Source: Escherichia phage BF17 | Sequence record: MW822008.1 | Direction: 5' to 3' (one strand) | Length of the DNA: 64,000 nucleotides | In this document: piece by piece, positions 18,760 to 64,000 of the stretch | Numbering within the stretch: the stretch's first letter is position 1 | Layout of the letters: the number at the start of each line of letters is the position of its first letter | Made by a program: the position numbers and the translations under genes | Notes under the pieces: generated by a model | The model's input: the letters and a program-made list of their open reading frames with translations, nothing else | What the model was told of the DNA's origin: nothing | Database searches by the model: none

Positions 18760-18766
18760 TAAAAAA

Positions 18767-18789
18767 TCCAGTACTATAATAGTACTGGA
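18767..18789. terminator. bidirectional hairpin between convergent genes
   Basis: TCCAGTACTATAATAGTACTGGA between plus-strand stop 18759 and minus-strand stop 18796. Confidence 0.55.
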
Positions 18790-18795
18790 TTAATT

Positions 18796-19920
18796 TTAAT
18801 TATCTAAGCCACCAATTACACTGAACAGTGTGGTAACGTCTGAACTATTATCTATGTAAGTTCTTCTACCAACATAATATAGTTGTCCTTTTGCTTGAAT
18901 AAAAGTTACGGTCCCTGTATTGAATGTTATAATATCATTGTATGTAATGTCAGGTGGTAGTGCTGCTGATAACGCAGTAACTTTACTTAATGCAGCACTA
19001 GTACTACCATTTATACCAGCAGCAATACTACCAGTACCATAGAACTTATTATCTTTACCAATGAATACGTTGGCTGATGCTTGTGTAGCTGATGTTATTG
19101 CCTTACCAATTTGGAATGCGGTTCCTATGGTGTATGGTGTGCTCCTGGCTGCGTCTATGCTTTGTGTATATCCATCCCCTAGCTGACCATTAACTTTGTC
19201 ACCACATGAGTATAAAGTACCATTGAGGCTGTATATGATCCCACGGTTAGAGAAGCTAACAGCTTCTGCATTAGTCCATACTGGAGCGGTGTATGAGTTT
19301 ACACGACTAGCAGTAGTTCCTAGTCCTAGTATACCATATGTGTTATCACCACATCCAAACCATTGTCCAGTACTGTTTTGATAGAACACTGAACGTTCTG
19401 TTGATTCCATGCGTACAGCATCCACAGCACCACTTTTAACGAACGAAGTGGATGAGGATGTAGTACCAGTACCCAATGCACCATAAGTGTTTGTACCAAT
19501 CGCATAGATTGATCCTAGTGGTGTCATCACACGTATACAGTTATATCCCAATTGAACTTTACATTCAAATAGGTTGTCCCATATTTCAGGAACAGCAGAA
19601 AATAAATTTGTAATTTCGAACCATGATGTTGTCGAACCAATTAATCCTATACTGCTTTTGTTTCCTAAAATGAAAACAGTTTTGTCCTTCTTAATTATCC
19701 ATGATGATAGGAAACCTATCTCACAGCTATGAACATTTGATTCTATTTGGGTAATATAATACTTAACTGTGTTATCACCCATGAATGCCGCAGCACCGGA
19801 TGCAAAAAGGTTTCCAGTTTGTTTATTTAAAATGTAGTTATTGTTTCCATATACACTAACATCATAAGAACTTTCTTGTTTTTCGTTCCCATAATCAAAT
19901 AACAATACGAAAGGTAACAT
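18796..19920 (-). CDS. array member 1: RCC1-like repeat protein
   Basis: 374 aa; N-term MLPFVLLFDYGN; NGQLGDG and YGILGLG repeats; Gly/Thr/Ser/Asn-rich. Confidence 0.75.
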   Translation of the reverse strand: MLPFVLLFDYGNEKQESSYDVSVYGNNNYILNKQTGNLFASGAAAFMGDNTVKYYITQIESNVHSCEIGFLSSWIIKKDKTVFILGNKSSIGLIGSTTSWFEITNLFSAVPEIWDNLFECKVQLGYNCIRVMTPLGSIYAIGTNTYGALGTGTTSSSTSFVKSGAVDAVRMESTERSVFYQNSTGQWFGCGDNTYGILGLGTTASRVNSYTAPVWTNAEAVSFSNRGIIYSLNGTLYSCGDKVNGQLGDGYTQSIDAARSTPYTIGTAFQIGKAITSATQASANVFIGKDNKFYGTGSIAAGINGSTSAALSKVTALSAALPPDITYNDIITFNTGTVTFIQAKGQLYYVGRRTYIDNSSDVTTLFSVIGGLDN

Positions 19921-19997
19921 GATAAAATCTCCTTGTGTTATACTTTATTTAATCATTTTATAATGTACAATTTTACAGCGATTTAATTGAGGTACTC

Positions 19998-20648
19998 ATG
20001 AATAAAAGAAGTAAGTTCTATCAAGAATATTTCACTAAACATAAACGATTCACAAAAAAATACTTTACATCATCCCACCGACCAGTTGCAAGTTACAAAC
20101 GTCCTAATACTAACTATCTTGCTGGTGGCAAGTTTAGTGCAAAGTTCGAATTACTTATGCGTGAAAAGAATATCAAGATGCATTACGCAGAGACGAGAAA
20201 AAACTCATCAATTATTTGCTCTGATTTTCTTGAGTACGGTTGCTTAACTTATAAATTCAATGATGTATATTTGTATATTGATGTTGATTGTAACAGTACT
20301 CTTATGTTTGAGATTTCAATTCACCCAAATCACAACCGTTATATAAACATTAACTTGATTGATAAAGTACTGATTGGTATATCTAGTACTGATGGTGGTG
20401 GATTTGAATTTATTGCTTCAAAATATGATGAAGATTTCGTACTTTACCCAGTACTTGATGATGTGAAAGATATTCTCAATTCATTAAAAGGAAGTCAATA
20501 CAAATTATCTGAAGAACAGCTATTTCAGTACTCACTTATTCATGATGATATCGAGATATACTTAGAGTGTGCGAGAATCTTGGAGTATCTTTATAATGAA
20601 CTAACAACAACTGGTAAAGTGACTGCATTCACATTATATAATATGTAA
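19998..20648 (+). CDS. hypothetical protein, paralog of 40123-40782
   Basis: 216 aa; plus-strand gene inside the minus-strand array; shares CNST and LSEE[QD]LF[QM]YS with 40123-40782. Confidence 0.65.
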   Translation: MNKRSKFYQEYFTKHKRFTKKYFTSSHRPVASYKRPNTNYLAGGKFSAKFELLMREKNIKMHYAETRKNSSIICSDFLEYGCLTYKFNDVYLYIDVDCNSTLMFEISIHPNHNRYININLIDKVLIGISSTDGGGFEFIASKYDEDFVLYPVLDDVKDILNSLKGSQYKLSEEQLFQYSLIHDDIEIYLECARILEYLYNELTTTGKVTAFTLYNM

Positions 20649-20654
20649 AAGAAA

Positions 20655-20673
20655 AGCCAGTACATAGTACTGG
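20655..20673. terminator. bidirectional hairpin
   Basis: GCCAGTACATAGTACTGGC between convergent 19998-20648 and 20681-21817. Confidence 0.55.
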
Positions 20674-20680
20674 CATTATA

Positions 20681-21817
20681 TTAAACTGGTGGAGAATTAT
20701 ATGGCTCAAATTTATAAGTTGTCGTAGCAGTACCAGCAATGGCGTTGTTAGCTAGTATGTACATAGTCCTGTAGTCGATTACCACTACAGTAATACTACC
20801 ACCAAAAGCATAGTCTGTTATGTTATTAGTGTTGAATGGTAAATTAGATGAACTGGTCCATGTATTAGCTGTTGTGCTATTTGTACCATTGGAATAACCT
20901 ACACTAGATGCACCAGTTGTCCATAAGTTTCCATCATTGAACAAGGAGACATGGTTAGTTGTATATGATTTATTAGGTATAGAACTATCAATTGGTGTAT
21001 TCCAAACTTTAGTAACCCATGTTGTAACTGCTGTATTATTAGTAACGCCATTACCTAATGAACCATTTATTGGTATACCTCTTATATAAGAAGTGTTAGT
21101 ACTAGGGTCAACATATCCAAATGTATATGTATCAAATGCAAATTGAAAACAATCAGAACTCGGTAATGTGTACAGTAATGTATATGAAGACGTGTTTATT
21201 GATGAATTTGTACCGTTCACACCTTGGTATAAAATACCACTAGCCAATATTTGATTATTATTTTTTGTTATAGTGTTCATTGATGGATATGTTTTCACAT
21301 CACGCACATCATTAGTCACATATGTTTGTGTTGATAATGCAACGTTACTACCATTACCTATAACCCCTGTATTTGCACCACTCCCATAAAGTGAACCATC
21401 ATTCAAAAGAACCATTGTAACATTACCATTTCCCGTAATTGTTTTAATATTACTAACATCCACCGCAGCAAATACAGTTGATGTTAAATCAGTGAAACGT
21501 GTATAATGTGATGTTGTGCCATTGATTGGTGTCGCAAAACCAGAATACAAAATTCTATTTTCTTTGGTAATAAGGAATGTGCCAGTAACACCATTTGAAT
21601 GGATATCAACAATATTATCGCCCATTAATACCCAATCACTTACGAATGTTGTTGTACCAGTACCCAACCCATATGTCGTATTGTATCCACGTCCATACAC
21701 TCTACCATCACTGAGTAATGTTACCACACATTGACCACCACCACCAAGTATAACTTTTTGTATAGTACTCTTTACTTTTATATTCCCGTACTTAACCATT
21801 CTTGCAAAAGGTAACAT
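20681..21817 (-). CDS. array member 2: RCC1-like repeat protein
   Basis: 378 aa; N-term MLPFARMVKYGN; 14 nt downstream of member 3, so probably co-transcribed. Confidence 0.75.
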   Translation of the reverse strand: MLPFARMVKYGNIKVKSTIQKVILGGGGQCVVTLLSDGRVYGRGYNTTYGLGTGTTTFVSDWVLMGDNIVDIHSNGVTGTFLITKENRILYSGFATPINGTTSHYTRFTDLTSTVFAAVDVSNIKTITGNGNVTMVLLNDGSLYGSGANTGVIGNGSNVALSTQTYVTNDVRDVKTYPSMNTITKNNNQILASGILYQGVNGTNSSINTSSYTLLYTLPSSDCFQFAFDTYTFGYVDPSTNTSYIRGIPINGSLGNGVTNNTAVTTWVTKVWNTPIDSSIPNKSYTTNHVSLFNDGNLWTTGASSVGYSNGTNSTTANTWTSSSNLPFNTNNITDYAFGGSITVVVIDYRTMYILANNAIAGTATTTYKFEPYNSPPV

Positions 21818-25454: not shown

Positions 25455-25473
25455 GCCAGTATCAAGTACTGGC
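25455..25473 (-). terminator. inter-cassette hairpin
   Basis: GCCAGTATCAAGTACTGGC on plus strand. Confidence 0.6.
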
Positions 25474-53229: not shown

Positions 53230-53230
53230 T

Positions 53231-53866: not shown

Positions 53867-53883
53867 TAATAAGGAAACGAATC

Positions 53884-54225: not shown

Positions 54226-54238
54226 TATTAAAAAATAG

Positions 54239-54300
54239 TTTGACAATAGATTATAGTACTGTATAATAAGTTACATCAAGGGGAGAATAGTTCTCCCCAC
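54239..54300 (+). promoter_or_regulatory. sigma70-like promoter with leader hairpin
   Basis: TTGACA-17-TATAAT; hairpin GGGGAGAATAGTTCTCCCC. Confidence 0.6.
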
Positions 54301-54316
54301 TAACAGAGAAAACAAA

Positions 54317-54529
54317 ATGGCTAATATCTGCACTGTACTGAAAAATGCAAAACAAGTTTTATTTTCTGACCACGATTATTTTAATAAAGATATTACAGGC
54401 GTTCGGAATATCAAAGATGTAAAAAGTGTTATGGGTATCTATTGCAATATGAAACGTGTTGGAACGTTCGGCGACAAAGTACTATACCAGGCAGGGGATT
54501 ACAATTTTACACTGACTATCATTAACTAA
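54317..54529 (+). CDS. hypothetical protein
   Basis: 70-aa ORF. Confidence 0.55.
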   Translation: MANICTVLKNAKQVLFSDHDYFNKDITGVRNIKDVKSVMGIYCNMKRVGTFGDKVLYQAGDYNFTLTIIN

Positions 54530-54548
54530 AAATATTATCACAGTACTA

Positions 54549-54578
54549 TTGACATAGTTTGATAGTACTGACATAATA
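54549..54578 (+). promoter_or_regulatory. sigma70-like promoter (TTGACA class), repeat copy
   Basis: third copy of the 51421 block with -10 variant ACATAAT. Confidence 0.5.
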
Positions 54579-54612
54579 ACTTTTATCAACTACACTACTA
54601 AGGAATTAAAAA

Positions 54613-54792
54613 ATGGCTATCATCGCAAAAACTGAAATCGTTGGTCTGGATTCTATCATCATGACGTTTGAAGATCAAAAAGGTATGTATGTAGTTTCAT
54701 ATGGTGATTATGTTCGGGAGTATGAAACGGTAGACGAAGCCTTTGAAAGTTATATTCGCCAGGTGAATAAAGCATACGACGACTACCGCTAA
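54613..54792 (+). CDS. small protein
   Basis: 59-aa ORF below cutoff; MAIIAKTEIVGL. Confidence 0.45.
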   Translation: MAIIAKTEIVGLDSIIMTFEDQKGMYVVSYGDYVREYETVDEAFESYIRQVNKAYDDYR

Positions 54793-54819
54793 AATATATT
54801 ACCAGTACTATTAAAGTTA

Positions 54820-54848
54820 TTGACATAGTTTGATAGTACTGTATAATA
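54820..54848 (+). promoter_or_regulatory. sigma70-like promoter (TTGACA class)
   Basis: TTGACATAGTTTGATAGTACTG TATAAT. Confidence 0.5.
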
Positions 54849-54891
54849 AGTTTTATAAACAGTAGTTAACTTAACCTAAGAGAGAAATAAA

Positions 54892-55035
54892 ATGATCGCA
54901 CTGGATTCATTCATCGACGCAGTACTGGCAAAAACTGGCGAGGATCTGACCGCAGAACAATACGCGATGATCGAGCAATGTCAGCAAAACGGTAAATCGG
55001 TGAAAGATACTGTTAAGATTATCCGCAAGATGTAA
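54892..55035 (+). CDS. small protein
   Basis: 47-aa ORF below cutoff; followed by terminator-like inverted repeat. Confidence 0.4.
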   Translation: MIALDSFIDAVLAKTGEDLTAEQYAMIEQCQQNGKSVKDTVKIIRKM

Positions 55036-55134
55036 GATTATAGCCCACTGGTTAACGCTGGTGGGCTTTAATCCTTTACCCTATACAATGTCAGTACTAA
55101 ACCGTTTATCTCATTAGAATGCGTTACAGGACGT

Positions 55135-55338
55135 TTGACAATGATTAGCATGAAATCAGTACAAAAACAAATAGAAACATTATCAAAAATTAAACGTAAA
55201 CAGTACTCGTTAGAATATACAATCAATGGTAACTATCATCTAATGAAAGAGAATAATTTTATCGTCATTGATGAATCATTGCAAGTTATTAGTATAGTAC
55301 TGAAAGCATTAATTAATGATAGAAAAAAATTAAAATAA
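55135..55338 (+). CDS. hypothetical protein
   Basis: 67-aa ORF. Confidence 0.45.
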   Translation: MTMISMKSVQKQIETLSKIKRKQYSLEYTINGNYHLMKENNFIVIDESLQVISIVLKALINDRKKLK

Positions 55339-55669
55339 TCTATTGACAATATCCTCCAGTACTGGCATAATACTTACATCAAGACGAGAACGTCACTAAC
55401 CCATAGGGTGCACAAATGTAACTGTATAATATTGATCAAAAAATGATCTGATCAATACTTGATCAATTTGCGTAAAGTAGTATAATTCTATGCAGTTGGT
55501 TAGACGAAAGGTTATGATTAGTAGTGCAAGTGTATAAAAATTTTCATGGTGTATCGTTCCGCACATATGGCAATGAATATGTGGTATCATGTGGATTGGA
55601 AAAAGTAAGAACAAGTAATATTATTGTCGCATTACAGTACTATAGTATTTTTATAATGAGGTTAAAATA

Positions 55670-55927
55670 ATGGCTGTAGGATTCGCGAAAGATGGGGCCG
55701 AACAAGACGAGATTAACGCAGTGATTCAGGCCGCCGTTAACCACGCTAGAAAGCAAATTAACGCACAAATAGAATCACTGATACATTGCCTCGACTGCGG
55801 CGATATAATCCCTGAGAAACGACGCCAGGCCGTTAAGGGATGTAAGTACTGCATAACTTGCCAGGAGGATCATGATAGTACTTTTAAACGTCCCCCGCGT
55901 AATTGTTGGCATAGATCTATGAGATAA
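55670..55927 (+). CDS. TraR/DksA-family C4 zinc-finger protein
   Basis: 85 aa; C-x2-C...C-x2-C in HCLDCGDIIPEKRRQAVKGCKYCITCQE. Confidence 0.65.
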   Translation: MAVGFAKDGAEQDEINAVIQAAVNHARKQINAQIESLIHCLDCGDIIPEKRRQAVKGCKYCITCQEDHDSTFKRPPRNCWHRSMR

Positions 55928-55933
55928 AAAGTA

Positions 55934-55990
55934 TTGACAGTACTATCCAGTAGTGTTATAGTACTTACATCAAGGGGAAACATCTTCCCC
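55934..55990 (+). promoter_or_regulatory. sigma70-like promoter with leader hairpin
   Basis: TTGACAGTACTATCCAGTAGTG TTATAGT; hairpin GGGGAAACATCTTCCCC. Confidence 0.5.
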
Positions 55991-56002
55991 TACTAAGAGG
56001 AA

Positions 56003-56197
56003 ATGAAAATGGAAAACTTATCAAGTATTTTAGTACAAGATGATTTCGGTAATCCTGGAAGTGCTATCATTGTTCGGGGTAATAAAGCAACATTTGTTAT
56101 TGCTGGTGGACCTGTACAGCGTAGCATTAAAAACAATGCCGTTACTATTAATAATGTACGCTATCGCTTAGATAAAGAATTGATTCATAAACTGTAA
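56003..56197 (+). CDS. hypothetical protein
   Basis: 64-aa ORF (alternative start 56009). Confidence 0.5.
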   Translation: MKMENLSSILVQDDFGNPGSAIIVRGNKATFVIAGGPVQRSIKNNAVTINNVRYRLDKELIHKL

Positions 56198-56224
56198 TAT
56201 TAATTTAATAGAGGATAACAATAA

Positions 56225-56548
56225 ATGTACATTCATACTACTATCACAAAGGAAGTCCGTTGCCAGTTCGAAAGTATTCCGGGCGTATGTTTCATCACTG
56301 GTACGTTTTCCCCTGGTGATCGTGATAATCCAGTACTGTTACAATTACGCCATCCATCATGGGATAAAGCATTTGATCTACCGTTGAATGAATTCGCAAC
56401 TACTGCTGAAAAGTACATTAAAAATATTCGCGAGAATGATCGACTATTCATTAATGCTTTCAGTGATTCCGCGTTAAGCGAGATCCACAGCGTATTGGTT
56501 GCAATCATGGAATCAATGGAGAAAACTAAATTCAAACAAGGTGAATAA
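56225..56548 (+). CDS. hypothetical protein
   Basis: 107-aa ORF, GAGGA upstream. Confidence 0.55.
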   Translation: MYIHTTITKEVRCQFESIPGVCFITGTFSPGDRDNPVLLQLRHPSWDKAFDLPLNEFATTAEKYIKNIRENDRLFINAFSDSALSEIHSVLVAIMESMEKTKFKQGE

Positions 56549-56553
56549 AAACT

Positions 56554-56616
56554 ATTGACAAGATAATCTAGTACTGTATAATAAGTTACATGAAGGGGAG
56601 AAATGATTCTCCCCAC
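56554..56616 (+). promoter_or_regulatory. sigma70-like promoter with leader hairpin
   Basis: TTGACA-17-TATAAT; hairpin GGGGAGAAATGATTCTCCCC. Confidence 0.6.
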
Positions 56617-56631
56617 TGAGAGGAAAGAAAA

Positions 56632-56844
56632 ATGCAAGGTCAACTAATCGTTCGTAAATGGTCTGATACTAACGCTAAACCGTGGGATGTACAATACATC
56701 GGACCGGATGGGGTATCACGTTATCAGCCTGGCGTAACGCATAGTACTGAGCAATATGCCGCCGCTCACCGCGAACGCCTGTTAGAATCCATGAAACAGG
56801 GATACGGTGAAAAATTCATTCAAGATCATTGGCTGAAAGATTAA
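56632..56844 (+). CDS. hypothetical protein
   Basis: 70-aa ORF. Confidence 0.55.
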   Translation: MQGQLIVRKWSDTNAKPWDVQYIGPDGVSRYQPGVTHSTEQYAAAHRERLLESMKQGYGEKFIQDHWLKD

Positions 56845-56861
56845 TATAAGGAGTACAGCTT

Positions 56862-56954
56862 ATGCAAATGAATCCGATGATTATTGTGTTAGCTGTACTT
56901 ATGATCATTCATGCAATAGTAAAAGTATTAACGCAATCAGGAGTAATAAAATGA
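56862..56954 (+). CDS. small hydrophobic peptide
   Basis: 30-aa ORF; AAGGAG upstream; single TM-like helix. Confidence 0.35.
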   Translation: MQMNPMIIVLAVLMIIHAIVKVLTQSGVIK

Positions 56955-57124
56955 TTCAAGTAGAATTATCAGTACTGAAAGATCTGTTTTATCGGTTAGG
57001 TACTACTGGCGAGTATCCTAAAAGTGATACCGCAAAACTTTTTGTATCACTCGACTTATGGCAACGCGAACAATTAGTAATGTCCTGGCGTAAAGGTAAA
57101 GCAGATAGCGAGGTGAAAGCATGA
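56951..57124 (+). CDS. small protein
   Basis: 57-aa ORF overlapping upstream stop (ATGA). Confidence 0.35.
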   Translation: MIQVELSVLKDLFYRLGTTGEYPKSDTAKLFVSLDLWQREQLVMSWRKGKADSEVKA

Positions 57125-57270
57125 AAGAATTCTTATTCGAAGTAGTGTTTCAAGGTGTCGGTAGTAACCAACTGATTCGCTCAAGTGGTTATAATGTTAA
57201 CCAGGCATGGAATAACATTAAACAAATGTACCCGAACGCTATCACCTATCGCAACCCGAAAGAAGTTTAA
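57121..57270 (+). CDS. small protein
   Basis: 49-aa ORF overlapping upstream stop. Confidence 0.35.
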   Translation: MKEFLFEVVFQGVGSNQLIRSSGYNVNQAWNNIKQMYPNAITYRNPKEV

Positions 57271-57284
57271 AAATATTTGAAAAA

Positions 57285-57306
57285 GGGATTGACTCCGGTC
57301 AGTCCC
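57285..57306 (+). terminator. hairpin terminator with embedded TTGACT
   Basis: GGGATTGACTCCGGTCAGTCCC. Confidence 0.55.
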
Positions 57307-57414
57307 TTTGCTATTATATACGCATAGAAACAAATCAGCCCACAGGGTGCATAAATGTATCTATTGTTTGCTGGTGGCTAGTACTGAAAACTATTTTTAA
57401 AAAAGTACTTGCAT

Positions 57415-57446
57415 TGTACTTAGAATCAAGTATAATGTTTTACATC
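57415..57446 (+). promoter_or_regulatory. early-type promoter driving the second candidate small-RNA copy
   Basis: ACTTGCATTGTACTTAGAATCAAG TATAAT. Confidence 0.55.
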
Positions 57447-57525
57447 AGGACGGGGAACGAAACAAGTAACCCCGTTAAGTAGTCCAGGAGTAAGACATAA
57501 GAAAACCTCCCCTGATAAAATAGTT
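57447..57525 (+). ncRNA. candidate small RNA / structured leader, copy 2
   Basis: near-identical to 47131-47215; again between an upstream promoter and a downstream TTGACA...TATAAT. Confidence 0.4.
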
Positions 57526-57585
57526 TGACAATAGAAAGTAAACGAGTATAATACTTACATCAACCACTGATAAGGAAACATTAAA

Positions 57586-57861
57586 ATGCGGATTCTACTG
57601 ACAGCTAACGAAATCGAACAAGTACTGACTACTAACCTGGAAGACTGGAAACGTGAAGCAGATATCCAGGCGGTTCAACTGCTTAACGATAAGTTAACGC
57701 CGGATGACTTAAGCAAGATTGTAGATCCTCAATTCTACGAAGATATCCACGACACCGCGTTAAGCGTCGAGGATGTACTAGATAAGCACTACATTGATAT
57801 TGATTTGCAGGTTTACGGTCGTAAAAACTTTATCACTATTCACGACATTTATAATAATTAA
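57586..57861 (+). CDS. hypothetical protein
   Basis: 91-aa ORF. Confidence 0.55.
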   Translation: MRILLTANEIEQVLTTNLEDWKREADIQAVQLLNDKLTPDDLSKIVDPQFYEDIHDTALSVEDVLDKHYIDIDLQVYGRKNFITIHDIYNN

Positions 57862-57863
57862 GT

Positions 57864-57925
57864 ATTGACAAAGTATCTTAGTACTGTATAATAGTTTACA
57901 TCGAGAGGGGGAATGGTTCCCCTCC
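57864..57925 (+). promoter_or_regulatory. sigma70-like promoter with leader hairpin
   Basis: TTGACAAAGTATCTTAGTACTG TATAAT; hairpin GGGGGAATGGTTCCCCTCC. Confidence 0.6.
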
Positions 57926-57947
57926 TAACAAAGAGAGAGAAATAAAA

Positions 57948-58130
57948 ATGGCTAAATGCACTATCTGCAAGAAAGAAATAGTATTAGTTCCAAGTGCCCG
58001 TGAACGTGCCGCTCGGTTCGGTGGCAAAGCGTCAGACTATACAAAAATGTTTACTACCCATGCAGCTTGCCAGGTAGCAAAACGTTCACAAGAAAGCGTA
58101 GAATTAATGCGTAAACTTTCCAAAAAATAA
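57948..58130 (+). CDS. small Cys-containing protein
   Basis: 60 aa; C-x2-C at N-terminus. Confidence 0.5.
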   Translation: MAKCTICKKEIVLVPSARERAARFGGKASDYTKMFTTHAACQVAKRSQESVELMRKLSKK

Positions 58131-58133
58131 GTA

Positions 58134-58196
58134 TTGACAAAGTATCTTAGTACTGTATAATAGTTTACATCAAGTGAGGGGAAACGGTTCCCCTCC
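58134..58196 (+). promoter_or_regulatory. sigma70-like promoter with leader hairpin
   Basis: near-duplicate of 57864 unit. Confidence 0.6.
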
Positions 58197-58218
58197 TAAC
58201 AAAGAGAGAGAAATAAAA

Positions 58219-58542
58219 ATGGCTATGATCCTTGCCCAGAAAGTAGAACTGAAAATTGTAACCTCCTTTGACATTAAAGTTAATCGGTGGACTGATTCAC
58301 ACGGCAATACTTACCACTCTTGCTACGTGTCCGCGTTAATTGGCGACCGCTGGGAAGACTTGGGACATGAAACCTTTACTTACGGTTACGGTACACAAGG
58401 AGAATACACGGGCTTGGAGATCATTAAAGAAACCGTTATAGGTTTCAACCCGAAAGAAAAAGTTATTCACCGCATCGAAAAAGAGATTAACAAAGAAATA
58501 ACAGTTCGCTACTACGATGTAAAACGTAAGAAAGACATGTAA
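58219..58542 (+). CDS. hypothetical protein, paralog of 51801-52124
   Basis: trimmed to MAMILAQ. Confidence 0.6.
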   Translation: MAMILAQKVELKIVTSFDIKVNRWTDSHGNTYHSCYVSALIGDRWEDLGHETFTYGYGTQGEYTGLEIIKETVIGFNPKEKVIHRIEKEINKEITVRYYDVKRKKDM

Positions 58543-58637
58543 TAGAATCCATTTAAAGTACTATTTGACATTGCCCAGATAGTACTTTATAATAGACTCT
58601 AACTTGTAGTACTAACTCAACTAATAGGATGTATACC

Positions 58638-59033
58638 ATGATTACTAAATTCTACGCTACCCGTGAAGCTGCCCGTATTGTTGCACGCGAGGAAGGAGCA
58701 GCATTTAAAGACATGGGCAAAGATGCACCGAAAGGTCAACGCTGGGCCGTACAGTTCAAAGAAATCTCTGATATTGTGAATTCACCTGAGCCAGTACTAA
58801 CAGCAGCAGAACTAAAACGAGCGGATTTACTGGCGGCAGTACTTAACGCACAAGATGAATTTATCGCTGATTCTGATATCAAAGTACAGACAAACCATAC
58901 CGCTTGGACTCACGCGGATCACCTGGCAAACCTTAAGCGTCCAAGTGAACTGGTTCGCAACCAGAAAGAGATCCGACACGACCGTAAGGGTAATCGTGTA
59001 ACAGTATACAGTAAACGCCGCCAGGTTATCTAA
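58638..59033 (+). CDS. hypothetical protein, paralog of 46266-46532
   Basis: trimmed to MITKFYATREAARIVAREEG. Confidence 0.6.
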   Translation: MITKFYATREAARIVAREEGAAFKDMGKDAPKGQRWAVQFKEISDIVNSPEPVLTAAELKRADLLAAVLNAQDEFIADSDIKVQTNHTAWTHADHLANLKRPSELVRNQKEIRHDRKGNRVTVYSKRRQVI

Positions 59034-59054
59034 TAACTTGCAGTACTAACAACA

Positions 59055-59088
59055 CGGCGGGATCAGTTCCCGCCTTTTTTATAGGATA
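59055..59088 (+). terminator. rho-independent terminator
   Basis: GGCGGGATCAGTTCCCGCC + TTTTTT. Confidence 0.65.
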
Positions 59089-59095
59089 AACTAAA

Positions 59096-59350
59096 ATGAT
59101 TAAGGTACAACTATCTAAAGATAATATCTTGCGGGTACACTATAAAGCACCACAGAGAATCATCACAAAGGCCGTACAGCTTGCTAATGAGTTTATTAAT
59201 GGTAACCTATTACCAAGGAAGTTAAGCAACGGAAAACTGCGTGTAATCGATGTAGACACTAACAACAGAATAGTAATTGAGAACACAGGAAAGATAAACC
59301 TATATGAACACCAACAATATAATAAGAAAATAAAACTAATATCACGTTGA
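59096..59350 (+). CDS. hypothetical protein
   Basis: 84-aa ORF. Confidence 0.5.
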   Translation: MIKVQLSKDNILRVHYKAPQRIITKAVQLANEFINGNLLPRKLSNGKLRVIDVDTNNRIVIENTGKINLYEHQQYNKKIKLISR

Positions 59351-59376
59351 CAGTACTCAATTGTTTTAGTATTATG
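59347..59376 (+). promoter_or_regulatory. sigma70-like promoter
   Basis: TTGACA-17-TATTAT; duplicated at 59623. Confidence 0.55.
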
Positions 59377-59403
59377 TACACATACCAACACGGGAGAAAC
59401 AAA

Positions 59404-59622
59404 ATGAAATTATCTAAAATCGAAAAGAAAACTATTGATGAAGCAGTTAAGCACGGTTATACCTTTCGTAATGATTCACATTTTACCAATTTTCAACAAG
59501 GCCAAAGGACTATTAAAAAACTAATTGACAAAGGTTTATTAGTTAAAGTAGATAACGGTAACGGCATTGAGTATCAGCCAACCCAAGACGCATTATCTTT
59601 AAAGAAATATGCAATTATCTAA
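59404..59622 (+). CDS. hypothetical protein
   Basis: trimmed to MKLSKIEKK. Confidence 0.55.
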   Translation: MKLSKIEKKTIDEAVKHGYTFRNDSHFTNFQQGQRTIKKLIDKGLLVKVDNGNGIEYQPTQDALSLKKYAII

Positions 59623-59653
59623 TTGACAGTACTCAAATGTTTTAGTACTATAT
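59623..59653 (+). promoter_or_regulatory. sigma70-like promoter (duplicate of 59347 unit)
   Basis: TTGACAGTACTCAAATGTTTTAG TACTAT. Confidence 0.55.
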
Positions 59654-59679
59654 GTACATACCAACACGGGGAAAACAAA

Positions 59680-59922
59680 ATGATTACTTTAGAAAAACGT
59701 ATCAAAGAAACTACATCGCTGGTGGAACTGTTAACAGTACTGAAATGCCGTACTACTCGGTTTAGTACACCGGACTTTATTAATATGGTTGATGTTAACG
59801 GTCGTTATCGCATTGCAGTAGAACATGGAACAGCGAAAGTATTCAGTACTAAAAACACTAAGGAAGTGATTCACGCGGTTAGTGTGAAAAAAGTGGTTGC
59901 CATTGATAGTAAAGTACTGTAA
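59680..59922 (+). CDS. hypothetical protein
   Basis: trimmed to MITLEKRIKE. Confidence 0.55.
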   Translation: MITLEKRIKETTSLVELLTVLKCRTTRFSTPDFINMVDVNGRYRIAVEHGTAKVFSTKNTKEVIHAVSVKKVVAIDSKVL

Positions 59923-59953
59923 GATAGTTTCATTAACTCAAGGAGAACATGCA

Positions 59954-60538
59954 ATGCGTAATTATACTAAATTCATCCGTACCCTGTCAGAAATGGAAAC
60001 CAACAAAGAGATCCTTTCAGCTTGTCGGTTAGCTGGTCTGGAGATCATCGGTGCGGGTTCTTCCCGTATTGTATTCGCTTTAAATGATCGGTTAGTGATT
60101 AAGGTCGCCAATTGTGATGCGGGTGTAGAACAAAATGAAACTGAATGTAAGGTATGGAATTTTTTAGACTATGACCGCCCTCAATTGAAACAGTACTTTG
60201 CAAAGGTGCATATGCATTTATGCGATCCTGATAATATGTTTATCGTTATGGATCGGTTGAGTACTGCAAGCAAAGGCAGTGTAAAGCACGTTAACGCGTG
60301 CAACGAATTAAAGTACAATATTAAACGTAATGCCATTGAACGCCAGCACCGCTTTGCTGATGCACTACAACACGTCGATGATACATTATCAACACTAACG
60401 ATAAGAGATATCAGAAAACAGAATATCGGCCAGGATCGTAATGGACTTATTAAAGTACTTGATTACGGTTTAACCCGCAATATCTGGAATCAGTACTATA
60501 AAAAGCGTGATGTGGCAGCAAGTAAAGTAACACGATAA
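59954..60538 (+). CDS. possible small protein-kinase-like protein
   Basis: trimmed to MRNYTKF after AGGAGA; kinase-like motifs IGAGSSRIVF, VIKVA, IRDIRKQNIG, VLDYGL. Confidence 0.45.
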   Translation: MRNYTKFIRTLSEMETNKEILSACRLAGLEIIGAGSSRIVFALNDRLVIKVANCDAGVEQNETECKVWNFLDYDRPQLKQYFAKVHMHLCDPDNMFIVMDRLSTASKGSVKHVNACNELKYNIKRNAIERQHRFADALQHVDDTLSTLTIRDIRKQNIGQDRNGLIKVLDYGLTRNIWNQYYKKRDVAASKVTR

Positions 60539-60551
60539 AAAAGATTAAAAA

Positions 60552-60573
60552 AGGGATTGATTTCGGTCAGTCC
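60552..60573 (+). terminator. hairpin terminator with embedded -35-like box
   Basis: GGGATTGATTTCGGTCAGTCCC. Confidence 0.55.
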
Positions 60574-60674
60574 CTTTGCTATTATATATTCATTGAGAGA
60601 TAGCTCACTGACCCACAGGGTGCATAAATGTATCTATTATATAAGTATTCAGTACTGAAAACTATTTTTAAAAA

Positions 60675-60742
60675 GTACTTGCATTGTACTTAGAATCAAG
60701 TATAATGTTTTATATCGAGAGGGGGGGAACGGTTCTCCCTCA
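60675..60742 (+). promoter_or_regulatory. early-type promoter with leader hairpin
   Basis: ACTTGCATTGTACTTAGAATCAAG TATAAT; hairpin GGGGGGGAACGGTTCTCCCTC. Confidence 0.6.
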
Positions 60743-60761
60743 AAGAATAAGGAATAAAATC

Positions 60762-60983
60762 ATGACTACAATGACTTGCATTTACGCTTCCAATCTTCTG
60801 AATGATGCGGCCTTTAATGTTGATTCAGAATATCAATGTTATCGGGATGAAAATAAAAAAGTTTTTGTAGTTGATAATAATGGTTTCCATATTGAAATAC
60901 AATCCGGCTTCACTGGTGTTGATGGTAAATCAGTATGGGGCGTACAGGATGATAACGGTACATATCATTTTAAACGTAATTAA
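60762..60983 (+). CDS. hypothetical protein
   Basis: trimmed to MTTMTCIYAS. Confidence 0.55.
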   Translation: MTTMTCIYASNLLNDAAFNVDSEYQCYRDENKKVFVVDNNGFHIEIQSGFTGVDGKSVWGVQDDNGTYHFKRN

Positions 60984-60985
60984 GT

Positions 60986-61046
60986 ATTGACAAAGTATCT
61001 TAGTACTGTATAATAGTTTACATCAAGGGGAGAATAGTTCTCCCCG
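60986..61046 (+). promoter_or_regulatory. sigma70-like promoter with leader hairpin
   Basis: TTGACAAAGTATCTTAGTACTG TATAAT; hairpin GGGGAGAATAGTTCTCCCC. Confidence 0.6.
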
Positions 61047-61067
61047 ATACTAAAAGGAAACAAAATT

Positions 61068-61340
61068 ATGTCCAGCTACTCCGCTACTATGATCATTAAA
61101 GATATGAACGGTAATCCTACTTCCGCTGGTGGATCATTTGGAAACATTAATTTAGATGGTCGGTTATCCATGCAATCAGCCATCGATGCAGCGAAAGAAG
61201 TTTTTAAGAATGAATGCACTGTAAGCAAGCTGGATTATATGGGATTCGCTATCGAGAAAACTAATCGTTTTGTGAACTACAAAAATCCACTGATGATTGA
61301 TACTAACCTGAAAGCTAACGAAGTGGAATACTTATTATGA
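61068..61340 (+). CDS. hypothetical protein
   Basis: 90-aa ORF. Confidence 0.55.
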   Translation: MSSYSATMIIKDMNGNPTSAGGSFGNINLDGRLSMQSAIDAAKEVFKNECTVSKLDYMGFAIEKTNRFVNYKNPLMIDTNLKANEVEYLL

Positions 61341-61528
61341 CAGTTGAAGAAGTTAAAAAAGTACTGGCAGTACTACGCTATCATAATCATTGCAAGGTGA
61401 AGAATGATCCTGATTATGTTGATTCATCCCTGGAGGAAGACACATTAAACGCAATAAGCCATATGCAAACATTAGCAAAGCGTATGACCGAAAAGAATAG
61501 ACCGGACTATATCGGAAATAAAATTTAA
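61337..61528 (+). CDS. hypothetical protein
   Basis: 63-aa ORF overlapping upstream stop. Confidence 0.5.
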   Translation: MTVEEVKKVLAVLRYHNHCKVKNDPDYVDSSLEEDTLNAISHMQTLAKRMTEKNRPDYIGNKI

Positions 61529-61530
61529 AA

Positions 61531-61597
61531 AGTACTTGCATTGTAGTTAGATTAACGTATAATGTTTTACATAGAGCGGGGGAATAGTTCTCCCGCC
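61531..61597 (+). promoter_or_regulatory. early-type promoter with leader hairpin
   Basis: ACTTGCATTGTAGTTAGATTAACG TATAAT; hairpin GCGGGGGAATAGTTCTCCCGC. Confidence 0.6.
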
Positions 61598-61614
61598 AGT
61601 CCAGGAGATACACC

Positions 61615-61878
61615 ATGAACACTATCGAAATCACTATCAATGCACACGTATACGACAACGTAGTACTGCAAACTACTATGACCGCTAACGATACCAGTAC
61701 TTTGCGGAATACTGTTATTAGTGCCGTATGTGCCGCTATCGGTGATGTCGCCCTGGAAAATGCAAAACACGTAAACGATGGTTTCACTATGTGCAAACGT
61801 GATAACGCAAAACATATCATCGTGGAAGGTTACGGCGGTGTAGAATTTAATGTTTATATGAAAAAAGTACTTGCATAA
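61615..61878 (+). CDS. hypothetical protein
   Basis: 87-aa ORF. Confidence 0.55.
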   Translation: MNTIEITINAHVYDNVVLQTTMTANDTSTLRNTVISAVCAAIGDVALENAKHVNDGFTMCKRDNAKHIIVEGYGGVEFNVYMKKVLA

Positions 61879-61927
61879 TAACTAAAACAAAGTATAATGT
61901 TTTGCATAGGGGGAGATGTCCTCCCCC
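61866..61927 (+). promoter_or_regulatory. early-type promoter with leader hairpin
   Basis: ACTTGCATAATAACTAAAACAAAG TATAAT; hairpin GGGGGAGATGTCCTCCCCC. Confidence 0.55.
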
Positions 61928-61945
61928 ACTAAAAGGAGTAATAAA

Positions 61946-62170
61946 ATGGCTAACTTTGATGAACTGATGCGGGAAGTAGCTAACCTGGCAGAAGAGAAAA
62001 AATCATTCGATTCTATCTATAACACCTCTTACCGTGATTCAGTACTGGCATGTAACCAGGATCAAAAAGATGAACTAATCGCCACCTATCATGAAGCATG
62101 GAAGTACTACCGACAATGGGAGAAAGAAGAAAGAGAGTCTACCATTGACGGCCTCAATAATCTAATCTAA
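61946..62170 (+). CDS. hypothetical protein
   Basis: trimmed to MANFDELMRE. Confidence 0.55.
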   Translation: MANFDELMREVANLAEEKKSFDSIYNTSYRDSVLACNQDQKDELIATYHEAWKYYRQWEKEERESTIDGLNNLI

Positions 62171-62189
62171 AAGTTTTATTTCAGTACTA

Positions 62190-62220
62190 TTGACATAGCT
62201 TGATAGTACTGATGTAATAA
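62190..62220 (+). promoter_or_regulatory. sigma70-like promoter (TTGACA class), repeat copy
   Basis: TTGACATAGCTTGATAGTACTGA TGTAAT. Confidence 0.5.
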
Positions 62221-62246
62221 CTTTACTAACTACAAGGGGAAACATC

Positions 62247-62504
62247 ATGGAACAATTCACACAATATCGGGTAAATCCTCAAGCTATGGCCTACGTAGAA
62301 GACCATAAAACGTTACCAGTACTGCAACCAGTTAAAGGCCATATCTATCGTGCAATGTCGTGGAGTACGGCCCAGGATGGCTATAAAACCGTAGCCGTTG
62401 GTATGTACTGCGGTAATGGTGAATGGTTTGATCCAAATAATCCGGTAGCCATTGACAGTACTGAAAAAATGAAATGGGCCGACTACATCGAAGATATTTC
62501 ATAA
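62247..62504 (+). CDS. hypothetical protein
   Basis: 85-aa ORF. Confidence 0.55.
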   Translation: MEQFTQYRVNPQAMAYVEDHKTLPVLQPVKGHIYRAMSWSTAQDGYKTVAVGMYCGNGEWFDPNNPVAIDSTEKMKWADYIEDIS

Positions 62505-62518
62505 AAAGAATAAAAAAA

Positions 62519-62540
62519 AGGAGTTGACTTCGGTCCGCTC
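62519..62540 (+). terminator. hairpin terminator with embedded TTGACT
   Basis: GGAGTTGACTTCGGTCCGCTCC. Confidence 0.55.
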
Positions 62541-62746
62541 CTTTAGTACTATATACGCATAGAAACAAATCAGCCCACAGGGTGCATAAGTGTATCCAAA
62601 ATATATAGTTAATAACGGTGAGTAACTATCTGCTGGTGGAACTAAAACTATTAATAAAAAAGTATTGACAAAGTATATCAGTACTGCAATAATGTATCTC
62701 GTAGGGCGGCAATGGTGCGACGGCCCACAAAGTTAGGAGATTCAAA

Positions 62747-63079
62747 ATGAGTACTTCAATCGCTATCGTTAAAGCTTTCATCCGTACCAATGTTTCATCT
62801 GTATTCATCGACGGTCTGGATCGGGAAGTAGAATACTCAATCATTATCGCACAGACTGCAAACGGTGCTCGGTATATCCTTAATGATAGTGAAGCAAATC
62901 ACTACTACTTCACTAAAGCTACTGGCTTTAAACGCATCGATGCTGATGTAGTATACGCTAAGATGAATAAGCTGGTAGACAAGATTAACGCTAAAGGTAC
63001 TATAGATTTACAGTACTGGACCGAAACCGATCCAGAATATGGATCTCACCGCTACCTGAATCCAGGTATTAAAATGTAA
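62747..63079 (+). CDS. hypothetical protein
   Basis: 110-aa ORF; AGGAG upstream; preceded by TTGACA promoter at 62664. Confidence 0.55.
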   Translation: MSTSIAIVKAFIRTNVSSVFIDGLDREVEYSIIIAQTANGARYILNDSEANHYYFTKATGFKRIDADVVYAKMNKLVDKINAKGTIDLQYWTETDPEYGSHRYLNPGIKM

Positions 63080-63083
63080 AAAG

Positions 63084-63150
63084 TACTTGCATAGTACTTA
63101 GAATCAAGTATAATGTTTTACATAGAGAGGGGGAAATGGTTCTCCCTCCT
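63084..63150 (+). promoter_or_regulatory. early-type promoter with leader hairpin
   Basis: ACTTGCATAGTACTTAGAATCAAG TATAAT; hairpin GAGGGGGAAATGGTTCTCCCTCC. Confidence 0.6.
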
Positions 63151-63168
63151 AAATTAAGGAGTTTTATC

Positions 63169-63570
63169 ATGACCTTCTCAATCAATTCCTTCGCTGACGT
63201 TTTAGTACTGGCTCGGACTTTCGGTAAAGATGCACTGGAGTACGCTGTAAGTAATGGCACTATCCAACCGGAACAGTGCCGCATCATTGGAAACTGCAAA
63301 CGTTGGGCGGTATCCAATACTATTGCACTGGAAAACTTCCACGATGGCAACAATGAATATTCTGTTGATGTAGTATTCGAAGCCGTTGATCTCGGCGGTA
63401 TCTATAATACTAACCTGAATGATGTGCGTATCGTTCGCACGGGGTTCGGTGCTTATGATGTATCTATCCGTGAAGCTATGGACAACGGATACATTAGCAA
63501 GGACTTACTTGCTCACATCATGCAGCTGTGTACGGAACGTAACGAAGCACGCACTATCTTAGGACTGTAA
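63169..63570 (+). CDS. hypothetical protein
   Basis: trimmed to MTFSINSF; 133 aa. Confidence 0.6.
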   Translation: MTFSINSFADVLVLARTFGKDALEYAVSNGTIQPEQCRIIGNCKRWAVSNTIALENFHDGNNEYSVDVVFEAVDLGGIYNTNLNDVRIVRTGFGAYDVSIREAMDNGYISKDLLAHIMQLCTERNEARTILGL

Positions 63571-63584
63571 GCGTTACACATCAC

Positions 63585-63615
63585 CAAACATCATAGGCCG
63601 CCTTGTAGCGGCCTT
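63585..63615 (+). terminator. terminator-like hairpin
   Basis: GGCCGCCTTGTAGCGGCC; no strong T-run. Confidence 0.4.
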
Positions 63616-63638
63616 AACTATATCAGGAGTACATACAT

Positions 63639-63848
63639 ATGTTCTATACAGTATACAGCGTTCTAGGTACTATTGCAGGCGTACATGATAACGTCAATGA
63701 TGCTATGCGTACAGTACTGCAACAGGTTCCACTAAAGCCTAAGACCATTAAGCAGATGACAGCACGACTAACCAGGGCGACCGATGGCGTGGAAGTATGG
63801 CAGGACTACGGGGATACACAGATAATCGTTAGCGTAACGAAGGATTAA
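63639..63848 (+). CDS. hypothetical protein
   Basis: 69-aa ORF, AGGAG upstream. Confidence 0.55.
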   Translation: MFYTVYSVLGTIAGVHDNVNDAMRTVLQQVPLKPKTIKQMTARLTRATDGVEVWQDYGDTQIIVSVTKD

Positions 63849-64000
63849 TGCGTAAAGGGATCTAGTACTGATTCAGAAAAAAGTCAAGGCGTTTTTAAAA
63901 TTATGCGTTAAAAAAATGCATAGGTAATCCCTTGACTTTTTTGAAATAAAAGGGATTGGACTATGGCAAAATGCGTAGGGGGCTAAAGGGCGGGTAACCT

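Follow-up and report, generated by a model that had tools for sequence, protein, structure and literature searches.

The palindromic hexamer AGTACT was found to be a phage-intrinsic, genome-wide "iterated palindrome" maintained by selection in the DNA of Escherichia phage BF17, of which a stretch of 64,000 nucleotides (nt; sequence record MW822008.1) was analysed. This whole stretch is called the window here, and AGTACT statistics refer to all of it unless a range is given. A megablast search with the window placed it in the genus Asteriusvirus (90-98% identity to 121Q, PBECO4, phAPEC6, CRJP21 and vB_Ec-M-J), which comprises the 121Q/PBECO4-like jumbo myoviruses of ~350 kb infecting E. coli and Salmonella. 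It is tentatively proposed that AGTACT is read by a putative phage-encoded, two-fold symmetric protein binding double-stranded DNA, which would mark the phage DNA and switch early promoters; we consider this reading quite possible, though short of probable.

Overrepresentation of AGTACT

An earlier note, made from the letters of this DNA only, described AGTACT as very frequent and attributed it either to the phage's own regulators or to selection linked to a modification or restriction system. The excess is even larger than that note implied. The window harbours 275 copies of AGTACT, while dinucleotide-preserving shuffles contain 21.3 +/- 3.9 (maximum 29), and the observed number exceeds the expectation 12.7-fold whether the latter is derived from base composition or from an order-1 Markov model. 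A comparison with a Markov model was the check proposed in the note; models of higher order give expectations of 108 (order 3) and 227 (order 4), a ratio near 1 being reached at order 4 only (observed/expected 1.2). However, since AGTACT itself dominates its own sub-words (275 of the 382 AGTAC pentamers belong to it), both of these expectations are circular and do not refute the excess.

No other palindromic hexamer of the window is as over-represented, the second, GTGCAC, reaching 2.9-fold. The enrichment is sharp for the exact hexamer (7-13-fold), while the one-letter variants, examined in all nine neighbour classes, are found at 0.3-3.7 times their expectation. Copies of AGTACT are found at a density of 2.3 per kb up to 38 kb but of 6.9 per kb from there to 64 kb, with ~0.33 per kb expected; the corresponding values for coding DNA are 2.3 and 5.9 per kb, and that for non-coding DNA is ~10 per kb from 18.7 kb onward. 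Positions 18760-64000, to which the note had assigned the excess, are indeed enriched, but the enrichment is not confined to them, for 1-18759 contains 43 copies as well (2.3 per kb, ~7-fold). The dense non-coding region mentioned in the note was located at the boundary of a terminal repeat (Table 1).

Symmetry extends to the sequences on both sides of the hexamer: 130 of the 275 sites have C at position -1, the same number have G at +1, and T is preferred at -3 as is A at +3. More than half of the sites (155 of 275) conform to YAGTACTR, and CAGTACTG alone occurs 63 times, as compared to ~0.7 by a rough base-composition estimate; the preferred extended form in non-coding DNA of Asteriusvirus is TTCAGTACTGAA. 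Orientation bias of the Chi/KOPS type is absent, as the hexamer equals its reverse complement and is flanked symmetrically. The sites are spaced at random or with slight regularity (coefficient of variation 0.80 for both the terminal repeat region and Cronobacter phage GAP32), as would be expected if density is what counts, and no helical or fixed box-to-box period was found in the spacing analysis. As far as open-access full texts are concerned, no account of AGTACT enrichment in these phages, or of the GCGC absence described below, was found in the literature.

Selection within genes

The majority of the sites (195 of 275, 71%) are located within open reading frames (ORFs) rather than in regulatory elements, and 80 are intergenic. 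All three frames are used: 83 sites are read as AGT-ACT, 72 as xxA-GTA-CTx and 40 as xAG-TAC-Txx. In shuffles that preserve both the protein sequence and codon usage, coding copies of AGTACT numbered 57 +/- 6.6 (synonymous codons exchanged within genes) or 42 +/- 5.5 (codons pooled) as compared to 196 observed, which corresponds to an excess of 3.4-4.7-fold. Protein sequences are affected too, Ser-Thr dipeptides being present 169 times, while 104 are expected from amino-acid frequencies. Moreover, 83 of these 169 dipeptides are written AGT-ACT (24 expected), whereas the reverse pair ACT-AGT occurs 8 times (13.5 expected), and Val-Leu is written GTA-CTN 91 times (33 expected). AGTACT is maintained by selection at the DNA level.

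Some of the sites do occur in repeated surroundings, such as the terminators of an array of RCC1-like genes and several early promoters, which are paralogous copies, and AGT and ACT are common codons. An artefact of duplicated promoters, terminators or paralogous genes, or else of codon or dipeptide usage, is nevertheless hardly credible, given that the intragenic sites occupy all three frames, that their number by far exceeds that in synonymous shuffles, and that the same excess is seen in four other genera sharing no nucleotide similarity. Synonymous shuffles, codon-pair counts and cross-genus counts refute it.

Distribution and conservation across jumbo phages

Relatives were sampled as segments, mostly of 50 kb (30 kb in the case of XacN1 and Atu_ph07). 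Two 50-kb segments of E. coli phage Sharanji contain 209 and 168 copies of AGTACT (12.5-fold and 10-fold enrichment) and the 50-kb replication module of E. coli phage UE-S1 contains 60 (3.6-fold), whereas 50-kb segments of RaK2 (Klebsiella), GAP32 (Cronobacter), fHe-Yen9-04 (Yersinia) and XaC1 (Xanthomonas) have 119 (7.0-fold), 114 (6.8-fold), 151 (9.2-fold) and 201 (11.9-fold), respectively. AGTACT is the top palindromic hexamer in each of these segments. Altogether, the excess ranges from 3.6- to 12.5-fold in five other segments of Asteriusvirus and from 6.8- to 11.9-fold in the four other genera. Outside the terminal repeat, the sites of the relatives are almost all intragenic, with similar coding and non-coding densities. 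Meanwhile, jumbo phages of more distant relationship show no excess: PA5oct is depleted of AGTACT (3 copies, 0.2-fold), Atu_ph07 has 2 copies in 30 kb (0.2-fold), and XacN1 has none in 30 kb (0-fold). A sample of E. coli K-12 has 3 in 50 kb (0.06 per kb, 0.3-fold). Since phages of Klebsiella, Cronobacter, Yersinia, Xanthomonas and E. coli are all enriched, the signal is phage-intrinsic, and the excess characterises one subclade of the ~350-kb RaK2-like jumbo phages.

These data bear on a host protein as the reader of AGTACT, first of all the nucleoid-occlusion factor SlmA, which a phage might titrate or activate. The SlmA site GTGAGTACTCAC has an AGTACT core (PMC3020112), and Enterobacterales are the hosts of most signature-positive phages. 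However, SlmA requires G, T, A and G at positions 1, 2, 4 and 5 of its 12-bp palindrome, with position 3 restricted to purines and position 6 to pyrimidines (PMC3020112), and the corresponding pattern GTRAGYRCTYAC has no match in 214 kb (the window and the RaK2, GAP32 and UE-S1 segments). At -1, G is the rarest base; only 31 of the 275 sites conform to RAGTACTY, and 194 have a pyrimidine at position 3. In addition, the 11.9-fold enrichment in the Xanthomonas phage XaC1 removes any host factor specific to Enterobacterales. With its flanks unmatched and XaC1 enriched, SlmA, or a host factor in general, is extremely unlikely and essentially refuted.

Conservation of the sites was compared with that of control hexamers. 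In the alignment with vB_Ec-M-J (95% identity), 91% of AGTACT sites are intact as compared to 82% of controls. Four genera were then compared by means of 80 orthologue pairs with 45-54% amino-acid identity: AGTACT recurs at the same aligned position for 20.7% of its sites, all other hexamers for 8.3%. If only those sites are counted at which the overlapped amino acids agree, 85% of AGTACT sites, but 41% of controls, are identical at the nucleotide level as well. Individual sites are conserved beyond coding constraint across genera and are therefore under purifying selection; since four in five sites turn over, the data suggest that density matters too.

Such turnover, with ~79% of sites not common to genera, is what would be expected of a neutral by-product, in which biased mutation, repair or gene conversion regenerates AGTACT and the sites have no function, and patches free of sites resemble newly acquired DNA that has not yet accumulated the motif. 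Against this stand the synonymous positions within sites, conserved twice as well as controls at 45-54% amino-acid identity, the fixed functional offsets in promoters and the presence in terminator stems, as well as the shift in amino-acid usage towards Ser-Thr (169 versus 104). Besides, no one-letter neighbour is depleted, on which ground Vsr-type biased repair was rejected. A neutral origin is thus judged very unlikely.

Sites in early promoters and terminators

The direct terminal repeat (DTR) annotated in vB_Ec-M-J (21,525 bp, positions 1-21525) aligned over its full length with positions 43411-64000 of the window, which sets the DTR start at 43411 and its end at the last base of the window. 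Judging from this match, the window represents the right genome terminus, i.e. unique sequence up to 43410 followed by the right copy of the DTR. In the close relative fEgEco12 a DTR of 20,993 bp has been shown experimentally (PMC13070987). The DTR encodes dozens of small genes and, as these are located behind consensus sigma70-type promoters, it is taken to be the early region.

Among the 38 strong sigma70-like promoters in 38-64 kb, 28 contain AGTACT at fixed offsets. In 18 of them the hexamer begins 7-8 nt before the -10 hexamer (e.g. ...AGTACTGTATAAT or ...AGTACTGGCATAAT), in agreement with the earlier note, which had placed it in spacers just upstream of TATAAT. In 14 promoters it begins 27-31 nt before the -10 and abuts or overlaps the -35, either fused to it, as in AAAAAGTACTTGCAA, or in the form AGTACTATTGACA. 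Several promoters hold two boxes, one beside the -10 and one beside the -35. AGTACT is constant while the remaining spacer varies.

Approximately 10 sites (<4% of all) reside in terminator stems followed by a U-run, and these are largely paralogous copies. The note was right about terminator stems at four loci (18765-18790, 20656-20674, 25455-25473 and 32246-32275), where hairpins with U-runs fold far better than shuffled sequences. In the first of them, one AGTACT lies in each arm of a 12-bp stem, which folds as UCCAGUACUAUA / UAUAGUACUGGA and is based on the inverted repeat ATCCAGTACT / AGTACTGGAT; U-runs are present on each strand. As the terminators of the RCC1 array are paralogous, their sites are not independent. 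A terminator role therefore cannot explain the excess, being limited to <4% of sites, mostly paralogous ones; more generally, with 71% of the window sites intragenic, and coding and non-coding densities similar outside the DTR in relatives, a role in promoters or terminators cannot account for the bulk of the signal. The idea of a motif for the phage's own regulators survives in part: the signal is phage-intrinsic, selected at the DNA level and fixed in position in early promoters, and it is an exact 6-bp palindrome of the sort recognised by dimeric binding proteins and restriction-modification enzymes alike, but most sites are intragenic and, among the segments compared, the promoter pattern is confined to the DTRs of Asteriusvirus.

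A fairly even, genome-wide distribution (one site per 150-800 bp) could also be anticipated if AGTACT were recognised by an enzyme of phage DNA metabolism that depends on frequent sites in both strands, for example a site-specific nickase providing entry for clamp loading or recombination, a T4-type topoisomerase II with its 4-bp stagger around GTAC, or a primase. A palindrome offers an identical site on each strand, and the phages encode a primase, a helicase, a clamp loader and topoisomerase II subunits. Known primases, though, read trinucleotides, and the consensus sequences of topoisomerases are weak. Such an enzyme would leave both the 20-fold density in the DTR and the fixed promoter offsets unexplained, while PA5oct encodes a primase subunit yet is devoid of the motif. 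This explanation is considered distinctly unlikely.

A putative symmetric reader

According to the reading favoured here, a phage-encoded reader would cover phage DNA densely, there being 1-10 sites per kb, but would find next to none on host DNA (~0.06 per kb in the E. coli sample), and would thereby act as a phage-specific chromatin or "self" tag. Given a site density 20-160 times that of host DNA, phage DNA could be marked or organised selectively by such a protein. In Asteriusvirus, boxes have in addition become part of the sigma70-type early promoters in the DTR, where they adjoin the -10 and the -35 on the upstream side; their occupancy would switch early transcription as a block, the simplest switch being a shut-off through occlusion of sigma contacts. 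Both the extended symmetric flanks in non-coding DNA of Asteriusvirus and the operator-like placement in promoters lean towards a dimeric binder, and the extended palindrome of 8-12 bp is what such a binder would contact.

Several observations weigh against the symmetric reader. Sharpness at the level of an exact hexamer is commoner for restriction-modification enzymes than for transcription factors. Flank preference, furthermore, is C/G in Asteriusvirus and RaK2, whereas A/T is as common in GAP32, XaC1 and fHe-Yen9-04, so that the common denominator is 6 bp only; taken together, this sharpness and the genus-dependent flanks lean towards an enzyme of the restriction-modification type. In two-box promoters the boxes are spaced by 14-40 bp, which means that there is no fixed cooperative geometry. 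None of the RpoD-like promoters published for the related phage CBB contains AGTACT; promoter use of the motif seems lineage-specific and may perhaps not be the ancestral function. About 79% of AGTACT positions are not conserved between genera. Finally, the Pfam scan of the 114 ORFs of the window revealed no helix-turn-helix or other obvious DNA-binding domain and no methyltransferase, the only matches being RCC1/Kelch, DksA/TraR zinc-finger, Pyr_excise, ParE-like, AAA and DUF7247/7249. One terminator of CBB does have AGTACTGG...CCAGTACT arms.

The ORF with the DksA/TraR-type zinc finger likely encodes, on the basis of this Pfam match, a modulator of the RNA polymerase secondary channel. A DksA-like zinc-finger protein is annotated in the DTR of relatives, and the ORF is probably situated in the DTR part of the window. 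Another ORF matches Pyr_excise, i.e. a pyrimidine-dimer glycosylase similar to T4 endonuclease V.

An orphan Dam-family methyltransferase

An exact 6-bp palindrome containing adenine is typical of the targets of type II methyltransferases, and AGTACT might accordingly be the target of the phage's orphan N6-adenine methyltransferase. In line with proposals for HIP1 and the alternate HIPs (highly iterated palindromes) of cyanobacteria, the excess would then have arisen or persisted because methylated sites act as an epigenetic self-mark for strand discrimination, protection or methylation-gated early promoters. A candidate enzyme of 173 amino acids (Pfam Dam family PF05869; gp542 of Sharanji, gene 417 of 121Q) is encoded outside the window. 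Across the signature-positive lineages checked (Asteriusvirus, RaK2/K64-1, Salmonella phages Munch/7t3, XaC1 and fHe-Yen9-04) this enzyme is conserved with 42-100% identity, its gene lying in synteny beside that of a cytidyltransferase; its presence in GAP32 is only surmised from two unlisted Cronobacter records, GAP32 not being among the matches listed. As to the signature-negative phages, XacN1 is not one of the two Xanthomonas records that match the enzyme at E <= 1e-30 and apparently lacks a close orthologue, and the PA5oct paper mentions no methyltransferase. DNA of RaK2 has been reported to be methylated (PMC3622015), and each alternate HIP co-occurs with a cognate methyltransferase (Elhai 2015, PMC4390886).

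A homologue in Geobacillus phage NIIg9.7, however, is as close to the fHe-Yen9-04 enzyme (53%) as that of XaC1 (54%), although NIIg9.7 has a single AGTACT in 39 kb (0.09-fold). With an equally similar homologue in a genome nearly devoid of AGTACT, the link between the PF05869 enzyme and the palindrome is not established. The characterised members of its family (T1, VT-2) methylate GATC, which also counts against AGTACT specificity. No Vsr-type footprint was found, AGTATT and AATACT not being depleted (observed/expected 0.95-1.5), and methyltransferase targets seldom show flank preferences as far out as +/-3. Protection does not extend to GTAC in general, since GGTACC and CGTACG are absent from the window. 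All in all, methylation of AGTACT by this enzyme is possible but doubtful.

Four other annotated proteins were examined and set aside: neither the "methyltransferase + endonuclease" pair g122/g123 of fHe-Yen9-04 nor the RaK2 ORF488 endonuclease showed a MutH-, Vsr- or restriction-enzyme-like family, and in gp548 of Sharanji, which was published as a "methyltransferase", no domain of that kind was found by Pfam.

Selection linked to modification or restriction, as put forward in the earlier note, agrees with the exact 6-bp palindrome, but ordinary restriction pressure predicts avoidance of a site and not a 13-fold excess. The search for a cognate methyltransferase or DNA-binding protein, likewise proposed there, yielded the PF05869 enzyme as a candidate elsewhere in the genome and none among the 114 ORFs of the window. 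Neither the phage's own regulators nor restriction-modification is confirmed. Avoidance does concern other palindromes: 25 GC-rich palindromic hexamers (GGATCC, CTGCAG, GAGCTC, GTCGAC, CCATGG, GGTACC and CGTACG among them) have zero copies in the window, and GATC is present at 0.44-0.72 of expectation. Such avoidance of restriction-type palindromes fits DNA that is unmodified at those sites. The DNA of fEgEco12 is cut normally by ten enzymes, ScaI not being one of them (PMC13070987).

Absence of GCGC

GCGC is missing from the window altogether (~68 expected), as well as from a further 400 kb of Asteriusvirus, RaK2, GAP32, XaC1 and fHe-Yen9-04, which gives 0 copies in 464 kb of phage DNA where ~380 are expected. 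It is present in PA5oct (47 per 50 kb), XacN1 (49 per 30 kb) and Atu_ph07 (51 per 30 kb), and in E. coli it occurs 342 times per 50 kb (6.8 per kb). The loss of GCGC and the excess of AGTACT co-occur perfectly in the twelve segments sampled. With hosts as different as E. coli and Xanthomonas, host restriction is hard to invoke for this loss, and a phage-encoded nuclease or nickase directed at GCGC is suggested.

The two palindromes could together form a self/non-self code, in which AGTACT would be a "self" tag read by a phage protein or methyltransferase and GCGC a "host-only" tag for a nuclease or nickase that destroys host DNA. T4 distinguishes its own DNA from that of the host by means of hydroxymethylcytosine, and such a code, if true, would be a counterpart of this system free of base modification; in our estimate it is rather unlikely.

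Patches with few or no AGTACT sites, in genomes otherwise dense in them, were observed in vB_Ec-M-J (22.5-25 kb and 30-35 kb) and in the tail-fibre/tailspike genes of RaK2 (27.5-37.5 kb of the segment). These patches still lack GCGC and possibly represent recently acquired DNA in which the motif has not yet accumulated.

Other features of the window

The features located in the window are listed in Table 1.

Table 1. Coordinates of AGTACT-bearing and other sequence elements in the 64,000-nt window of phage BF17.
Feature	Position	Strand	Description
Non-coding stretch across the DTR boundary	43108..45109	.	20 AGTACT, 10 per kb; mostly (T)TCAGTACTGA(A), the extended palindromic consensus
DTR, right copy	43411..64000	.	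135 AGTACT, 6.6 per kb, ~20-fold; alignment to vB_Ec-M-J 1-21525
Promoter class TTGACA-N16-TATAAT, example	54240..54267	+	AGTACT at 54255-54260, then G, directly upstream of the -10; offset in 18 promoters, several spacers
Promoter class AAAAAGTACTTGCAA-N16-TATAAT, example	45079..45111	+	AGTACT at 45079-45084 fused to the -35, preceded by an A-tract; 10 promoters
Two-box promoter AGTACTATTGACA...AGTACTGACATAAT, example	54542..54577	+	Boxes at 54542 and 54564, 22 bp apart, flanking the -35 and -10
Bidirectional intrinsic terminator between convergent genes	18765..18790	.	-15.6 and -15.7 kcal/mol, z = -7.0 and -6.3
RCC1-array terminator, representative	25455..25473	-	GCCAGUA-loop-UACUGGC, then U-run; ~9 paralogous copies in 20.6-34.7 kb
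Terminator hairpin	32246..32275	-	11-bp stem AUACCAGUACU / GUACUGGUAU, then U-run
Leader hairpin, examples	54275-54295, 57898-57923, 53838-53863		Within 45-64 kb
CCCACMGGGTGCATAAGTGTATC element, copies	46935-46957, 53738-53760, 57339-57361, 60612-60634, 62574-62596	+	
CCCACMGGGTGCATAAGTGTATC element, copy	46981-47003	-	
Chi octamers	43995, 44007, 50744, 50806, 55057, 56102, 57370, 59718, 61125, 62632		

Most early promoters have in common a leader hairpin that is conserved and rich in G/C (general form GGGGAGAAnnGTTCTCCCC); it directly follows the likely transcription start ...TTTACATC... and precedes a Shine-Dalgarno sequence. This hairpin, which has no match in Rfam, could stabilise the 5' end of early mRNAs or be a regulatory stem. 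In the window as a whole, no RNA families were detected by Rfam or ARAGORN. An element of ~23 nt, CCCACMGGGTGCATAAGTGTATC, is present in six copies and absent from shuffles; in several cases it is preceded by a hairpin with a 12-bp stem, AAAGGGATTGACTYCGGTCAGTCCCTTT, and this stem holds a TTGAC -35-like hexamer followed by GCTATTATAT.

The minus strand of 18796-38020 encodes ~14 tandem RCC1/Kelch beta-propeller paralogues of 370-430 amino acids, nearly all of which begin with MLPF(V/A)RM(F/V)(D/K)YGN. Their genes have the upstream sequence TATAGTATAATGAATAAAGGAGG in common, each with a GCCAGTA...TACTGGC terminator. In relatives the products are annotated as "regulator of chromosome condensation" or "DNA condensation protein" by homology alone. 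Just upstream of the DTR, the plus strand of 38124-43107 carries a paralogous family of mini-genes, ~25 back-to-back ORFs of 60-75 amino acids, dense in AGTACT, many of them with a C-terminal motif like KYTYREVLKLI.

An iteron-like array with an 8-bp period (CTAGACGG, ~12 copies) is situated at 44216-44324, ~0.8 kb inside the DTR, its repeats being nested in 24- and 32-bp units (GGCTAGA..ACGGCTAAAC). Near it, at 43231-43291, there are short repeats of the GTAATCAT type, and both are candidates for a packaging or replication signal.

The DTR also contains the Chi octamer of E. coli, GCTGGTGG, in 8 copies on the plus strand and 2 on the complement, as compared to ~0.1 by a rough base-composition estimate. 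The pairs at 43995/44007 and 50744/50806 form hairpins with Chi in each arm, and the Chi sites of the window DTR are present in vB_Ec-M-J as well. Plus-strand copies face RecBCD entering from the right genome end; the Chi excess may serve the protection of linear DNA ends.

A megablast search with 39001-64000 matched 203 phage records, ~155 of them at 80-90% identity. Such non-jumbo groups as Campylobacter phages, Phapecoctavirus and Justusliebigvirus were among the 203, so some short segment must be common well beyond the genus.

Implications

A lytic phage with an iterated palindrome is amenable to culture, recoding and methylation sequencing on a time scale of days, and the availability of positive and negative relatives, together with sites embedded in promoters, makes the question of what iterated palindromes are for directly testable. 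Should AGTACT be a self-tag, especially one combined with the complete absence of GCGC, this would reveal the means by which jumbo-phage DNA, though unmodified, is distinguished from that of the host. In practical terms, members of this phage subclade can be recognised in metagenomes simply by the combination of high AGTACT and zero GCGC, a lack of AGTACT in a patch may point to genes of recent acquisition, and the AGTACT-bearing early promoters would offer a ready co-regulated set for phage engineering.

Comparison with known systems

Among other systems built on palindromic or iterated motifs, the operators of a global early-gene repressor, such as those of TF1 in phage SPO1, overlap sigma70 early promoters, which in SPO1 lie in the terminal redundancy. 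The likeness lies in a palindromic box fixed beside the -10 or -35 of most early promoters and clustered in the terminal repeat; unlike these operators, most AGTACT sites are intragenic and far from promoters, the association was not seen in CBB, and the repressor is only hypothetical. The restriction enzyme ScaI has the same exact hexamer as its target, with the sharpness of restriction-modification recognition, but unprotected sites are avoided in phages, whereas AGTACT is enriched 13-fold; no ScaI-like gene was found, and no proteome-wide search for one was made. The SlmA site has AGTACT at its centre, but in the phages the required flanks are absent and a Xanthomonas phage is enriched.

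The uptake sequences of Neisseria (DUS) and Haemophilus (USS), and Chi, resemble AGTACT in that they are present in hundreds to thousands of copies in all frames, affect codon and peptide usage, often form inverted repeats in terminator stems, and separate self from foreign DNA by their density. They are, however, asymmetric, and Chi is orientation-biased, while AGTACT is symmetric; it implies no uptake or RecBCD-like reader.

The closest analogue is HIP1 (GCGATCGC) of cyanobacteria together with the alternate HIPs (PMC4390886; Xu, Lawrence & Durand 2018, PMC5861425), HIP1 sites being under selection (PMC5861425). Both HIP1 and AGTACT are short exact palindromes in at least 10-fold excess in coding and non-coding DNA, their sites are conserved beyond coding constraint, and an orphan methyltransferase is encoded in the same genomes. 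Unlike HIP1, AGTACT is AT-rich and 6 bp long, occurs in a lytic phage rather than in a cellular chromosome, and has a cognate methyltransferase that is only a candidate; its one-letter variants show no biased pattern (0.3-3.7), it occupies fixed promoter positions and terminators, and it is paired with a total loss of GCGC. To our knowledge, the function of HIP1 has not been found in 25 years of work. By this analogy, an iterated palindrome of the present kind in a lytic phage would be a new setting for a known class.

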